Shown in pieces: positions 29,895-62,669 of a stretch of DNA of 64,000 nt (the stretch's first letter is position 1; the number at the start of each line of letters is the position of its first letter). Below the pieces are notes generated by a model. It saw only the letters and a program-made list of their open reading frames with translations. It ran no database searches and was not told the DNA's origin. Source of the DNA: an uncultured Actinomycetota bacterium. Its GTDB lineage: Bacteria > Actinomycetota > Actinomycetes > Actinomycetales > Micrococcaceae. The stretch is from assembly GCA_963815415.1 (NCBI GenBank), contig CAWFGT010000011.1:127386-191385 (forward strand), given 5' to 3'. The position numbers and the translations under genes were made by a program.

Positions 29895-29967
29895 GCCCTC
29901 GTAGCTCAGGGGATAGAGCGTCTGCCTCCGGAGCAGAAGGTCGTTGGTTCGATTCCAATCGAGGGCA
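29895..29967 (+). tRNA. tRNA-Arg (anticodon CCG)
   Basis: Hand-folded cloverleaf: acceptor GCCCTCG/CGAGGGC, D arm GCTC-AGGGGATA-GAGC, anticodon stem TCTGC/GCAGA with loop CTCCGGA, variable loop AGGTC, T arm GTTGG-TTCGATT-CCAAT. 73 nt; CCA is not encoded. Confidence 0.95.
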
Positions 29968-46207: not shown

Positions 46208-47272
46208 CTAATGGTCCTGGCCAAGCCTCCGGTAGCCGGTGGCCTGGGTAGCATCCCTGATTTCGCCGACGAGTTCCTCAATGACGTCCTCCAGGAACAG
46301 CACACCCTGCGTCTTGCCGTCCACGCCGATCACGCGGGCCAGATGCGAGCCGGTGCGCTGCATCACGGACATTGCCTTCTCGATTTCGTCGTTCATGGCA
46401 AGGTTCGCGAGCGAGCGGATCCGGCTGTCCGCGACCGGTTGGTGGTAGGCGGATTCCGGGATGGAGAGCACATCCTTGATGTGGAGGTACCCGTAGAGCA
46501 TTCCGTCCTCGTCCAGCATCGGGAAACGCGAAAAGCCGGTTCGGCTCACGGCCTTCTCGAATTCGGCGGGGGTGGTGGTGCCCTTGAGCATGACCAGTTT
46601 CTCCAGCGGGACCATGACGCGGGCCGCCGTGTGCTCGGAGAATTCCAGCGCTCCGGTGATCAGCCCTGCGTCGTCGTCCACCAGCCCGTGGCGGGTGGAT
46701 TCCTGGACGATCGAGTGGACCTCCTCGAGGGTGAACGAGGAGTTGACTTCGTCCTTCGGTTCGATCCGCATCAGCTTGAGGATGTGGTTCGCGGACCAGT
46801 TCAGCACCGAAATGACCGGGTTGACCATCCGGGCGATGAACATCAGCGGCGGTGCCAGCAGCAGGGCTGCCTTGTCCGCGACGGAGACCGAAATGTTCTT
46901 GGGAACCATCTCGCCGAACGTGACGTGAAGGAAGGTCACCACCAGCAGTGCCAGGGCGAACGCCACGATGTCCGCGATCTCTATCGGGATGCCGACCGCG
47001 TGGAGCGGTACCGCCAGCAGGTGATGGATCGCCGGCTCGGCGACCTGCAGGATCAGCAGGGAGCATACGGTGATGCCCAGCTGCGCGCAGGCGAGCATCA
47101 GTGAGACGTTTTCCATCGCGCGCAGGGTGGTCTGCGCCCGCTTCGACCCGGCCTCGGCCAGCGGTTCGATCTGGCTGCGGCGGGCCGACATGACCGCGAA
47201 CTCGGCGGCGACGAAAAACGCGTTGCCGATCAGCAGGACGACGAGCCAGACAATTCCTGCCCAGTCACTCAT
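46208..47272 (-). CDS. CNNM/CorC-family (DUF21 + CBS pair) membrane protein, short form
   Basis: 354 aa. DUF21 N-terminus (LLIGNAFFVAAEFAVMSARRSQIE) and tandem CBS domains; no C-terminal CorC_HlyC domain. ATGA overlap with the upstream paralog. Confidence 0.85.
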   Translation of the reverse strand: MSDWAGIVWLVVLLIGNAFFVAAEFAVMSARRSQIEPLAEAGSKRAQTTLRAMENVSLMLACAQLGITVCSLLILQVAEPAIHHLLAVPLHAVGIPIEIADIVAFALALLVVTFLHVTFGEMVPKNISVSVADKAALLLAPPLMFIARMVNPVISVLNWSANHILKLMRIEPKDEVNSSFTLEEVHSIVQESTRHGLVDDDAGLITGALEFSEHTAARVMVPLEKLVMLKGTTTPAEFEKAVSRTGFSRFPMLDEDGMLYGYLHIKDVLSIPESAYHQPVADSRIRSLANLAMNDEIEKAMSVMQRTGSHLARVIGVDGKTQGVLFLEDVIEELVGEIRDATQATGYRRLGQDH

Positions 47273-48615
47273 GCGGCACCTGCCTGGCTGTCGGACTTTT
47301 CCCCGCTTGGATGCCGCCGTGCAGGGCGGAAGCAGATCCGGTCGATCCGCCGGCCGTCCATGCGGGTCACGCTCAGGGTGCCGCCGCCGACGTCGACGGT
47401 GTCACCTTCTGCCGCGATCCTGCCCAGCTTGCTCATGACGTAGCCTCCCACGGTTTCATAGCTGGCCTCGTCCGGCACGGTCAGGCCGGGGACTTGTTCG
47501 GAGAGCTCATCGGGACGCAGCAGCCCGGGGAAGTACCAGTCCCCCGCGGCGCTCTGCAGCAGACCGGGCCGGACCCTGTCGTGCTCATCGGCTACTTCAC
47601 CGACGATTTCCTCAACCAGGTCTTCCAGGGTGGCGATGCCGGCCGTGCCGCCGTATTCGTCCAGGACCACGGCGAGCTGGAGGTTGCCGCTGCCCTCGCG
47701 GAGCTCGGCGAGCAGCGCATCGAGGTGGATGGTTTCCGGCACGCGGAGCACCTCCGTCATGATGGCGCCTGCTTCCAGGTTCGCCCTCCGGTCGGCGGGC
47801 ACGGCAATGGCTTTCTTGATGTGGACCACACCGCGGATATCATCCGAGGATTCGCCGATGATAGGGAAACGGGAGTAGCCGGTGCGCTTGGCTGCCTCCA
47901 CAATGTCCGCCACCGACTGGTCGGCGTCGATCGTTTCGACCCTGATCCGGGGCGTCATGACGTCCGCGGCGGTCCGGCCCGAGAAGTTCAGCGTCCGGGC
48001 GATGAAGTTCGCCGTGCCGGCGTCGAGGGTACCCATGGCGGCGGAGCGGCGCACGAGGGAGGCCAGTTCGGCCGGGGTGCGTGCTCCGGAGATCTCTTCC
48101 TTGGCCTCCAGCCCGAAAACGTTCAGGACCTTGTTGGAGAAGCCGTTCAGGACCACGATTGCGGGTTTGAAGACGGCGGTGAAGACCAGTTGCGGGCGGG
48201 CGACGGCCTTGCCGATCGGGAACGACAATGCAATGGCCATGTTTTTCGGGACCAGCTCGCCGATCAGCATGGAGAGCAGCGTCGCGAGCGTCATGGCCAG
48301 GATCAGGGACACGGAGCCGGTCATCGCGGACGGGACCCCGACGGCGGCCAGCGGCCCTTCGAGCAGCTTGCCGACGGAGGGCTCCATCACGTAGCCGGTC
48401 AGCAGGGTGGTCATGGTGATGCCGAGCTGGCAGCTGGACAGCTGGGTGGACAGGGATTTGAGGCACTTCAGCAGCGGCTCGGCGGCCGTGTCTCCGTTGT
48501 CCACGGCGCGCTGCACCGTGGCCTGGTCCAGGGCTACGAGGGAGAACTCGACAGCCACAAAGAAGCCGGTGCCGAGGATCAGCAACAGGCCCGTTGCAAG
48601 GAGGATCCATTCCAT
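47269..48615 (-). CDS. CNNM/CorC-family (DUF21 + CBS pair + CorC_HlyC) membrane protein
   Basis: 448 aa. DUF21 (ILGTGFFVAVEFSLVALDQATV), CBS pair and a CorC_HlyC-like C-terminus (GDTVDVGGGTLSVTRMDGRRIDRI). Confidence 0.88.
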   Translation of the reverse strand: MEWILLATGLLLILGTGFFVAVEFSLVALDQATVQRAVDNGDTAAEPLLKCLKSLSTQLSSCQLGITMTTLLTGYVMEPSVGKLLEGPLAAVGVPSAMTGSVSLILAMTLATLLSMLIGELVPKNMAIALSFPIGKAVARPQLVFTAVFKPAIVVLNGFSNKVLNVFGLEAKEEISGARTPAELASLVRRSAAMGTLDAGTANFIARTLNFSGRTAADVMTPRIRVETIDADQSVADIVEAAKRTGYSRFPIIGESSDDIRGVVHIKKAIAVPADRRANLEAGAIMTEVLRVPETIHLDALLAELREGSGNLQLAVVLDEYGGTAGIATLEDLVEEIVGEVADEHDRVRPGLLQSAAGDWYFPGLLRPDELSEQVPGLTVPDEASYETVGGYVMSKLGRIAAEGDTVDVGGGTLSVTRMDGRRIDRICFRPARRHPSGEKSDSQAGAA

Positions 48616-48857
48616 TTAACGGCCTGCTTCCGGCGTGCCGGCTGACAGCAGGAGCCGCCGTGGTGCCGGCCTGAGTCCATGCCGGGGGAAACTGCCCGGC
48701 GGAGGATGGTCGGCGGAGACCGACGCTGTTTCCTGGAAGGCTCCGGGCTGGCGTGCCGCCGGAGCATGATGGGCGCGTGAACGGGGTTTGCCGGCTCTGC
48801 GGGTGGACTGCGCGGGAACGGATTCCGTTCCTCGCTGACAGCCCCCAGGCCGGCACC
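48616..48857 (-). promoter_or_regulatory. Structured 5' leader of the CNNM operon (candidate cis-regulatory RNA, class unknown)
   Basis: Non-coding; only an Arg-rich nonsense ORF is present. A 12-bp long-range helix, GGUGCCGGCCUG (48857-48846) with CAGGCCGGCACC (48673-48662), encloses ~170 nt containing several local hairpins. A final hairpin, CCUGCU...GCCGGAAGCAGG, covers the purine-rich stretch 10-18 nt before the ATG. Confidence 0.4.
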
Positions 48858-48915
48858 TAGATTTACTGTCCATAAGAGTTTCAGTCTACAGGGAGCGGAT
48901 CACCTGTCCCGGCGG

Positions 48916-50376
<1,461 letters not shown>

Positions 50377-50682
50377 TTATATAGGGCAGGCAGGGAGGTA
50401 TGCCCGTTCGTGACACGCATTCCCGGCGCCACGGGTGGCTCCCCTGCGATTCTAGGCGAGGTTTACTCCCTCCGCGGCGACGGAGCAGCGCCCGGTCCGG
50501 ACCCCGCCGTGAGGGCGTTTTCGGCCACATCATGATTTGAGTCACGCTTATTGGTGGTTTGGCGAGAATCGTCATTAGACTGGCATGGGTCTGGGTTCAC
50601 TGGACGTAAAAATGGTTCGTCCGTCGTGCCGACGCACCGTGGAATCAGCGGGAATCAAACTCATGGAAGAGGCGTATTTCAA

Positions 50683-62554: not shown

Positions 62555-62669
62555 GGTCACGAGTGCCAGCGCTAAACCCCGGTTTGCTGGCCGGCAACCC
62601 TCCATTCGCGGTGGGGTGCCCCGGGTGACGACCTGGCCGGTCCGGAGTGGATGCAGGCAAGCGCGGATC
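62555..62669 (+). promoter_or_regulatory. SAM-IV riboswitch aptamer
   Basis: GGUCACGAGUGCCAGCGCUAAACCCCGGUUUGCUGGCCGGCAACCCUCCAUUCGCGGUGGGGUGCCCCGGGUGACGACC...GCAAGCGCGGAUC. This is nearly position-for-position the conserved SAM-IV core as I recall it from actinobacterial examples (GCCGGCAACCCUCC / GGUGGGGUGCCCCGGGUGA). Confidence 0.85.

Follow-up and report, generated by a model that had tools for sequence, protein, structure and literature searches.

A conserved upstream open reading frame with an embedded covarying hairpin as the probable translated leader of CNNM/CorC-type genes in Arthrobacter and related Micrococcaceae

Introduction

Here we report the analysis of a 300-nt leader region upstream of a tandem pair of CNNM/CorC-type genes in an uncultured actinobacterium of the family Micrococcaceae (assembly GCA_963815415.1, contig CAWFGT010000011.1, positions 127,386 to 191,385; this whole stretch of 64,000 nt is referred to as the window, and coordinates are those of the window). 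The leader and its flanking genes lie on the minus strand. An open reading frame (ORF) for a guaB1-like protein of the IMPDH family (48916-50367), recognized from the ORF list and a domain search, is followed by CNNM/CorC-type gene 1 (47269-48615), encoding 448 amino acids with the CNNM, CBS, and CorC_HlyC domains, and by CNNM-type gene 2 (46208-47272), encoding 354 amino acids and overlapping gene 1 by 4 nt (47269-47272). An initial annotation, made from the sequence alone, described the region between guaB1 and CNNM as a non-coding, highly structured leader and a candidate unclassified riboswitch. The 300-nt gap is borne out by the ORF coordinates, and the region is indeed a conserved cis-acting leader with RNA structure; it is, however, not non-coding, since a conserved open reading frame runs through it, and nothing in it indicates a ligand-binding aptamer.

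The export of excess Mg2+ is the function commonly ascribed to CorC-type proteins, and in Salmonella high Mg2+ induces the genes corC and mgpA, as reported without a mechanism (PMC12421838). The leader described here provides a concrete and testable cis-element for the little-understood regulation of bacterial CNNM/CorC-type Mg2+ exporters. It is also a caution for riboswitch searches in high-GC genomes, where a structured and conserved 'intergenic' leader can be a missed reading frame.

The comparison of the leader covered 80 orthologous loci in genomes of Arthrobacter, Pseudarthrobacter, and Paenarthrobacter, approximately 40 further true instances from a pattern scan of metagenomes (about two-thirds of the scan matches were chance occurrences without a CNNM gene downstream), and a set of paralogues on plasmids and orthologues from Mycobacteriales. 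The leader goes with the CNNM gene and not with guaB1, being present also at loci without guaB1 within 3 kb upstream, and is a conserved cis-acting element found in dozens of soil Micrococcaceae, with a nucleotide identity of 67-93% among relatives. Conservation begins abruptly at CCTGTAGACT and is strongest across the first ~160 nt. No description of this leader was found in literature searches.

An open reading frame spans the leader

The initial annotation saw no credible ORF between the two genes. An upstream ORF (uORF; 48616-48873) of 85 codons plus TAA nevertheless fills the gap, starting with ATG at 48873 and ending with TAA at 48618-48616, directly adjoining the CNNM ATG (48615); its predicted product is the peptide MDSKSRCRPGGCQRGTESVPAQSTRRAGKPRSRAHHAPAARQPGAFQETASVSADHPPPGSFPRHGLRPAPRRLLLSAGTPEAGR. 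Internal stops in the uORF frame are absent from all 74 distinct leaders of the Arthrobacter group, whereas the other two frames of the same leaders hold on average 0.72 and 2.36 stops and are stop-free in 33 and 1 of them, respectively. The distance from the uORF ATG to the CNNM start takes 35 different values among the 74 leaders and, divided by three, leaves a remainder of 0 in 51, 2 in 21, and 1 in 2 leaders. As expected for a leader peptide, the start is in frame with the stop in all 74 leaders, this phase being kept through the insertions and deletions that produce the 35 lengths. The uORF ranges from 61 to 114 codons, and each version opens at the invariant sequence ATGGACAG. Among dinucleotide shuffles of the window leader, an ORF of at least 85 codons ending at the junction with CNNM arises in 1.9%. 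The uORF is essentially never annotated in genomes; a reading frame of such atypical composition can escape gene finders.

Upstream of the uORF start, the leader conservation sets in at TAGACT (48883-48888), a -10-like box of the form TANNNT located at a fixed distance of 9 nt from the uORF ATG. In relatives the box appears as TAGACT, TAAACT, TAGAAT, TAGGCT, TATGCT, TAGTCT, or TACGCT, with the same spacing in all subgroups. The initial annotation had paired TAGACT as a -35 box with TAAATC as a -10 box; this pairing does not stand, since TAAATC is not retained as TANNNT and becomes TTCCTC, CCTTCT, and similar sequences in relatives. TAGACT probably acts as a -10 box just before the uORF start and not as a -35 box. 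The start codon sits within a local AU-rich island, and no sequence resembling a Shine-Dalgarno (SD) element is present between the box and the ATG in the window. The conserved TANNNT box together with the lack of an SD before the ATG suggests that the uORF is leaderless or near-leaderless. A promoter-like site on the plus strand, CTGACA-17-TAGATT (48835-48863), antisense to the uORF start, was also considered and rejected, because its -10 element is not kept as TANNNT in relatives.

A covarying hairpin inside the reading frame

The uORF contains hairpin P1 (48789-48855, minus strand), whose base is formed by UGCCGGC (48855-48849) and GCCGGCA (48795-48789) and extends inward through the CUG/CAG, GGG/CCC, CUG/CAG, and GCG/CGC pairings up to a lineage-specific apical part, GGAACGG-AAU-CCGUUCC. 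P1 forms in 43 out of 43 leaders, with energies from -25 to -58 kcal/mol, despite differences in the sequence and length of its apex, and the P1 interior folded without its anchor arms gives a mean z-score of -2.1 (n=87 unique sequences). On an alignment of 74 leaders guided by the P1 model, and hence leaning towards the model structure, 76.7% of the alignment cells pair, compared with 30-42% in slid controls, and changes on both sides are seen in 18 of the 27 pairs. The covariation score on this alignment (0.137, versus 0.031-0.075 in slid controls) was reached by none of 500 shuffles; the signal is weaker on a purely sequence-based alignment. A P1 base pair, for example, switches from C:G to U:A. 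The hairpin always starts 18 nt past the uORF AUG and changes its length solely in multiples of three. P1 is the one RNA element of the leader that is real, conserved with covariation, and placed inside a reading frame. Its apex varies from 5 to ~95 nt, and in the A. agilis group the hairpin is reduced to GCCGGC-UCGAC-GCCGGC.

Two further local hairpins are moderately supported. In GCUCCGG...CCGGAGC (48740-48765, minus strand), 65% of the cells pair and 6 out of 7 pairs are changed on both sides, while in GUCGG-UCUCCG-CCGAC (48709-48724, minus strand) 72-84% of the cells pair, with a different register in the Paenarthrobacter group. These hairpins and the apical hairpin of P1 had been drawn in the initial annotation and are found in the sequence. 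So are the 12-nt segment GGTGCCGGCCTG (48857-48846) and its perfect complement CAGGCCGGCACC (48662-48673, minus strand), which were proposed as a closing helix and do close the minimum free energy (MFE) fold of the window leader. Among the 43 leaders, the closing helix pairs in 46% of the cells, within the slid background of 34-47%, and shows no compensatory changes. Its 3' arm is missing in 25-32 of the 43 sequences: it already reads CCCGCCCGCACG in the closest relative (L001) and is absent or unpaired in most others. The multi-helix junction drawn inside this helix is lineage-specific, and the accompanying GGGG/CCCC extension and GCGAGG/CCUCCGC helix are either not conserved or supported by invariant positions only in the same 43 leaders. 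The hairpin proposed to bury the CNNM SD as an expression platform is 55% paired, near the slid background of 34-47%. The fold as a whole has a z-score of -2.42 against -2.46 for the opposite strand, being neither strong nor strand-specific, and the equally low value of the opposite strand means that thermodynamics alone says little.

Other candidate structures were rejected. A pairing of CCA..UCCG with AUGGAAUGG in the RNAalifold consensus is uninformative because both sides are invariant. A long-range interaction between CCGUUCAC (block a) and the CNNM start, which appears in several MFE folds, is uncompensated where UU is replaced by AA, AC, or UA, and a pairing of the P1 5' arm with CAGGC in the SD region is absent in the Paenarthrobacter subgroup. 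The possibility that the 12-nt inverted repeat bounds a miniature inverted-repeat transposable element or another repeat was dismissed, given that the 64-kb window holds no other exact copy and the 3' arm is absent in relatives. No intrinsic terminator was found on the minus strand, and no partner of the CNNM ribosome-binding site (RBS) is conserved between the subgroups.

The lack of a convincing match to the RNA families considered in the initial annotation was confirmed by Rfam scans. A cmscan of positions 47000-50500 against Rfam 15 at E<=10 returned only a 15.5-bit chance match in the leader, and twelve other CNNM leaders gave no match; the leader does not fit the M-box, ydaO, cobalamin, NiCo, yybP-ykoY, or other cis-regulatory families of Rfam. 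A run over the whole window at gathering thresholds identified nothing in the leader and two RNAs elsewhere: a SAM-IV riboswitch (62555-62669, plus strand; 108 bits, well over the gathering score) and a tRNA gene (29895-29967, plus strand; RF00005, 68.8 bits). The recovery of these two RNAs indicates that the method works on this DNA.

These structural data bear directly on the proposal of a ligand-binding riboswitch, in which an aptamer would sense a metal or a nucleotide and an expression platform would hide the CNNM SD. Such an element would agree with a conserved and covarying P1 flanked by invariant nucleotides and with a leader that travels with a cation-transporter operon, and an unclassified class would be compatible with the lack of any match in Rfam. 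The leader nevertheless lacks the conserved, covarying multi-helix aptamer with conserved junction nucleotides that is expected from riboswitches in general: conservation extends neither to the closing helix and the junction nor to the SD hairpin, and the RNAalifold consensus retains just the base of P1 and two tiny invariant helices. A P1 apex that varies this freely does not resemble a ligand pocket, the element in its entirety is maintained as an open frame with insertions and deletions in multiples of three, and natural variants that have lost everything but the uORF junction persist (see below). We therefore consider a riboswitch very improbable.

Conserved motifs of the predicted peptide

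Ala, Pro, Arg, Ser, and Gly abound in the predicted uORF product, whose conservation is concentrated in a few blocks. At the N-terminus, codons 3, 5, and 6 show solely synonymous variation (AGT/AGC, TCT/TCC, and AGG/AGA, respectively). The C-rich block AAACCCCGUUCACGCGCCCAUCA (48767-48789, minus strand), near-invariant in two alignments (A1 and A3), encodes KPRSRAHH; an Arg codon within it varies synonymously (CGT/CGA/CGC), and at the peptide level the block takes the form PR[ST]RAHH. The poly-proline block GAC CAU CCU CCG CCG GGC (48694-48711, minus strand) encodes D55-H-P-P-P-G60 and is kept as [AP]D[HQ]PPP[GDEAV] in most leaders with variation at wobble positions only. The motif D[HQ]PPP[GDE] has the conservation expected of a sensor-type motif, albeit with some subgroups lacking it. 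The C-terminal part of the peptide is free to vary in length and sequence. A SecM-like RAGP motif was also considered; the family has RAGKP, RAGNT, or RAGNA at ~55 codons from the end, and the motif is not conserved.

The ratio of nonsynonymous to synonymous variation (pN/pS) was calculated on a translation-guided alignment, a procedure biased towards frame 0. For the whole uORF it equals 0.75, compared with 0.98 and 1.16 in the shifted frames. Purifying selection is seen at the level of motifs, with values of 0.47 for the D[HQ]PPP[GDE] block (2.0 and 1.4 in the shifted frames) and 0.66 for the RAG..AHH block (1.2 and 1.15), while the tail (0.89, against 0.96 and 1.06) and the P1 interior (0.88, against 0.83 and 1.16) are close to the shifted frames. 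The uORF also departs from ordinary genes in its codon-position GC content (0.72/0.71/0.63 in the window and 0.68/0.71/0.67 as the family mean, compared with ~0.67/0.46/0.86 in the flanking genes), in the absence of a family, and in the near-absence of homologues. No Pfam or NCBIfam family matched the 85-aa product, and a profile built from 19 diverse uORF versions had one match among 5.8 billion proteins.

If the uORF were a true gene for a small protein and simply the operon's first cistron, it would encode a basic disordered product with a function of its own, such as a partner of CNNM. The conserved ORF with its MDSxSRxR N-terminus, the synonymous variation, some purifying selection, and the coupling to the next gene in the manner of ordinary operon genes could all be expected from such a gene. 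The product would, however, have left no coding-type GC3 signal and no recognizable family, its tail is near-neutral and ranges from 0 to ~45 codons, and natural versions of 14 codons exist. In addition, the formation of P1 constrains several of the conserved stretches at each of the three codon positions. The selection pattern is better matched by a regulatory leader peptide than by a folded protein, and the uORF is probably not a protein gene in the usual sense; we regard a separate protein function as improbable.

The stop/start junction and natural deletion variants

At the end of the leader, the uORF stop abuts the CNNM start in the junction UAA|AUG (48613-48618, minus strand). In relatives the junction takes the forms TAAATG, TGAATG, TAGATG, TAAGTG, TGATG, TAATG, TGAnATG, and TAGnnGTG, and the stop abuts or overlaps the CNNM start in each leader, in all three relative phases. 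Such an arrangement is typical of translational coupling, the stop lying at -6 to +1 of the CNNM start throughout the Arthrobacter family. Given the 4-nt overlap of the two CNNM genes, the uORF, CNNM gene 1, and CNNM gene 2 form a string joined throughout by stop/start junctions. An SD-like purine run for CNNM, GGAAGCAGG (48623-48631, minus strand), lies within the last uORF codons, and relatives have GGCGGGA or GGAGGGA at this position.

Three loci from A. globiformis-like genomes (L010, L012, and L013) represent natural deletions of the leader. In them, 22 nt at the uORF start are duplicated in tandem, ATGGACAGTGAATATAGGTGCC being followed by ATGGACGGTAGATCCAGGTGCC, where the first uORF has 10 codons and the second has 14 (L010 and L012) or 43 codons (L013). 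The second uORF is devoid of the P1 3' arm and/or the downstream AHH and PPP blocks and still ends in CCATGATGG across the CNNM start. The stop/start junction is the most stubbornly conserved feature of the leader, because it is kept even in these 14- and 43-codon variants. The variants are located at positions 2916-3003 in L010 and L012 and 2829-3003 in L013, and the DNA upstream of them is AT-richer and looks inserted.

The persistence of the junction raises the alternative of a passive translated spacer, in which a leaderless transcript would be translated regardless and its frame kept open to avoid polarity, with no sensing. The junction being the most robustly retained feature, even in the deletion variants, is in line with this, as is Gordonia, where guaB1 fills the same upstream role with no leader (see below). 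A spacer leaves unexplained why P1 with its fixed 18-nt spacing and the AHH and PPP blocks are conserved across species whose CNNM proteins are 71-92% identical to that of the window, and it should shrink, yet it has shrunk in three genomes only. On balance, this alternative is unlikely.

Two metagenomic relatives with CNNM proteins of 71-74% identity have a shorter leader (L097, 4646-4834, and L154, 988-1176, both on the minus strand). Their 63-codon uORF has no PPP block and extends 36 nt into the CNNM coding region without stopping at its start.

Proposed mechanism and comparison with known systems

The interpretation that we consider probable is that the region is a translated leader, which controls CNNM through translation rather than through ligand binding. 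Transcription would start just past the -10 box TAGACT (48888-48883), and ribosomes would initiate at the AU-rich, SD-less AUG (48873), at or very near the 5' end of the transcript. They would translate the 85-codon ORF across the whole leader and terminate at the UAA directly against the CNNM AUG, CNNM synthesis being tied to the ribosomes that complete the uORF. The coupling could proceed via reinitiation at the junction, via melting of the GC-rich tail that holds the SD and the start codon, or via shielding of the C-rich leader RNA from premature (Rho-type) termination. P1, the PR[ST]RAHH block, and the D[HQ]PPP[GDE] motif as a potential stall site would serve as checkpoints that set how many ribosomes pass. 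In this way, the leader would gate a cation exporter by translational performance, with the gate open when ribosomes run well and shut upon a stall or a failed start. The translation of poly-proline needs EF-P, and the performance of the uORF may depend on Mg2+, EF-P, or Pro-tRNA, and possibly on polycations, the nature of the signal being a conjecture. The abutting stop in every lineage and phase suggests that the arrival of the ribosome at the uORF end matters, which argues for positive coupling and not for unmasking by a stall. In view of the proposed role of CorC-type proteins in Mg2+ export and their induction by high Mg2+, a gate that opens when translation runs well would be physiologically sensible.

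Several observations weigh against this scheme. The start site, leaderless initiation, the direction of regulation, and the signal are all predictions, and translation itself is deduced from conservation only. The composition of the uORF is unlike that of normal genes (GC3 0.63-0.67), and the overall pN/pS of 0.75 is just mildly under neutral on an alignment that favours frame 0. A strictly leaderless start usually has 6-7 nt between the box and the AUG, and the 9 nt seen here are long by comparison. CNNM owns an SD-like element, so the coupling may not be obligatory. The PPP motif is absent in the A. agilis group, the deletion variants, and several other families and is thus not a universal sensor. 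The enrichment of C over G, considered as a possible Rho utilization (rut) signal, is modest (87th percentile), leaving the Rho idea weak. Outside the Arthrobacter family, ORFs of at least 20 codons ending at the junction arise in 3-75% of shuffles; hence, only the frame conservation within each family carries weight, and generalization to other lineages is provisional.

The same features could be assembled into an attenuator activated by stalling, in the manner of ermC, mgtL, or the mycobacterial Cys ribulon. A ribosome paused at PPP or P1 would cover an anti-SD segment and unmask the CNNM RBS, with slow translation turning CNNM on. There is a mycobacterial precedent for such control (10.1101/834739), the PPP codons read CCUCCGCC, resembling an anti-SD, and by complementarity to the RBS window they rank among the top ~8% of leader windows. 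Partition-function folding, on the other hand, gives just 0.8 expected base pairs between PPP and the RBS, PPP is rarely the preferred partner, and no RBS partner is conserved between the subgroups. An attenuator of this type would leave unexplained why the uORF stop touches the CNNM start in every lineage and frame, and it would be physiologically strange for an exporter to be induced just as Mg2+-dependent translation is faltering. We view stall-activated control as doubtful.

The leader probably represents a new family of translated leader, composed of a uORF and a hairpin and comparable in general type to mgtL, mgtP, corL, mgtQ, and the leaderless sensory ORFs of mycobacteria. The Salmonella leaders mgtL, preceding mgtA, and mgtP, preceding mgtCBR, are similar to the proposed leader in that a Mg2+-transport locus has a translated ORF within its 5' leader, with conserved consecutive proline codons and with hairpins overlapping the ORF. 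These ORFs share no sequence homology with the uORF described here; they comprise 17-18 codons, possess an SD, and stop far short of the main gene, whereas the present uORF has 61-114 codons and no SD, spans the whole leader, and ends at the start of the main gene. The Salmonella leaders operate by alternative stem-loops and transcription attenuation and serve importers switched on by stalled translation, in contrast to the putative exporter downstream of this leader. In the mgtP leader ORF, proline codons mediate the response to proline limitation (PMC3641672).

The polycysteine ORFs of the mycobacterial Cys ribulon are similar in being actinobacterial, unannotated, leaderless (as predicted here), and the first cistron of a polycistronic transcript, and in them ribosome pausing on a sensory ORF controls the downstream gene (10.1101/834739). 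There, a Cys tract is the sensor and the stalled ribosome blocks an RBS-hiding duplex, whereas the uORF has a Pro-rich tract, the leaders showed no conserved duplex that would hide the RBS, and the stop/start abutment is the conserved feature. Small ORFs located just before a Mg2+ transporter gene are also known from mgtQ, a translation-aborting ORF between mgtC and mgtB (PMC8092293), from leader elements of corA (PMC11552253), and from corL, whose translation remodels the downstream RBS structure or affects Rho termination. They differ in being enterobacterial, short, and SD-dependent, in following another sequence logic (acidic residues in mgtQ), and in having no frame-neutral hairpin like P1.

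A parallel of another sort is the ilvB-II motif of Corynebacterium, a conserved intergenic 'structured RNA candidate' that was shown to be a uORF-based attenuator (PMC10272879); it responds to branched-chain amino acids through a short leader peptide in which the sensed amino acids are overrepresented and is not a transporter leader. Arrest peptides with RAPP or RAGP motifs (SecM, ApdA, ApdP, and examples from Streptomyces; PMC12992588) include regulatory uORFs of Actinomycetota with Arg, Ala, Gly, and Pro, and the window peptide contains RAGKP. In our family, no R-A/G-P-P is present near the C-terminus; RAG is encoded by the P1 3' arm, and the next residues are K, N, or R and then P, T, or A.

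CNNM leaders in other Actinobacteria

ORFs ending near the CNNM start were identified in several other lineages. In tandem CNNM operons of Streptomyces, three loci share a conserved uORF of 24-27 codons, MG[ED]PPS..., which is preceded by an AAGGAG SD of its own, ends in a stop that overlaps the CNNM start (A/GTGA), and differs synonymously between the loci. Five loci from Nocardiaceae and Skermania have a common [SQ]EGS..EPG[DE].PG motif in a frame that stops between -9 and +1, two Tsukamurella loci have a poly-Arg uORF ending at the junction, and on a Rhodococcus plasmid an ORF ends at the CNNM start. In Gordonia, on both a plasmid (L203, 1130-1138) and a chromosome (L216, 696-701), a leader is absent and only 4-7 nt separate the guaB1 stop from the CNNM start that follows, so that guaB1 takes the place of the uORF. 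The orthologues in Mycobacterium are probably Rv1843c-Rv1842c-Rv1841c. The P1 covariance model gave no match in the plasmid paralogues and Mycobacteriales, implying that the leaders of these other families are analogous or too diverged to detect.

These arrangements allow us to propose, as a speculation that is doubtful at present, a previously undescribed Actinobacteria-wide class of leaders, in which the synthesis of the CNNM/CorC exporter would depend on finishing an upstream Pro/Arg/Ser-rich ORF ending at the exporter start. The ribosome would then act as a Mg2+/polycation sensor in a mirror image of mgtL, and the Arthrobacter version would add leaderless initiation of the 70S type and, positioned at the mRNA entry channel, a frame-neutral hairpin.

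The Streptomyces uORFs are located at positions ~1066-1146 in L202, ~670-746 in L206, and ~660-746 in L208. In the Nocardiaceae/Skermania guaB1-CNNM leaders, the frame-conserved uORF includes a common element of ~40 nt, GGAGGGCUCCUCUANCGAGCCGGGUGACAAACCCGGCG, which contains a GCCGGG-loop-CCCGGC hairpin and has no Rfam match (L212, ~930-975; L213, ~925-970; L215 and L217, ~620-665; L218, ~590-635). Finally, CNNM pairs on Micrococcaceae plasmids (L205, L207, and L209, ~650-760) are located downstream of a TerC-family gene and are preceded by a different conserved uORF of 32-33 codons, MSTPGDSPGHSPCP..., whose TAG begins 7 nt past the first base of the CNNM start codon.

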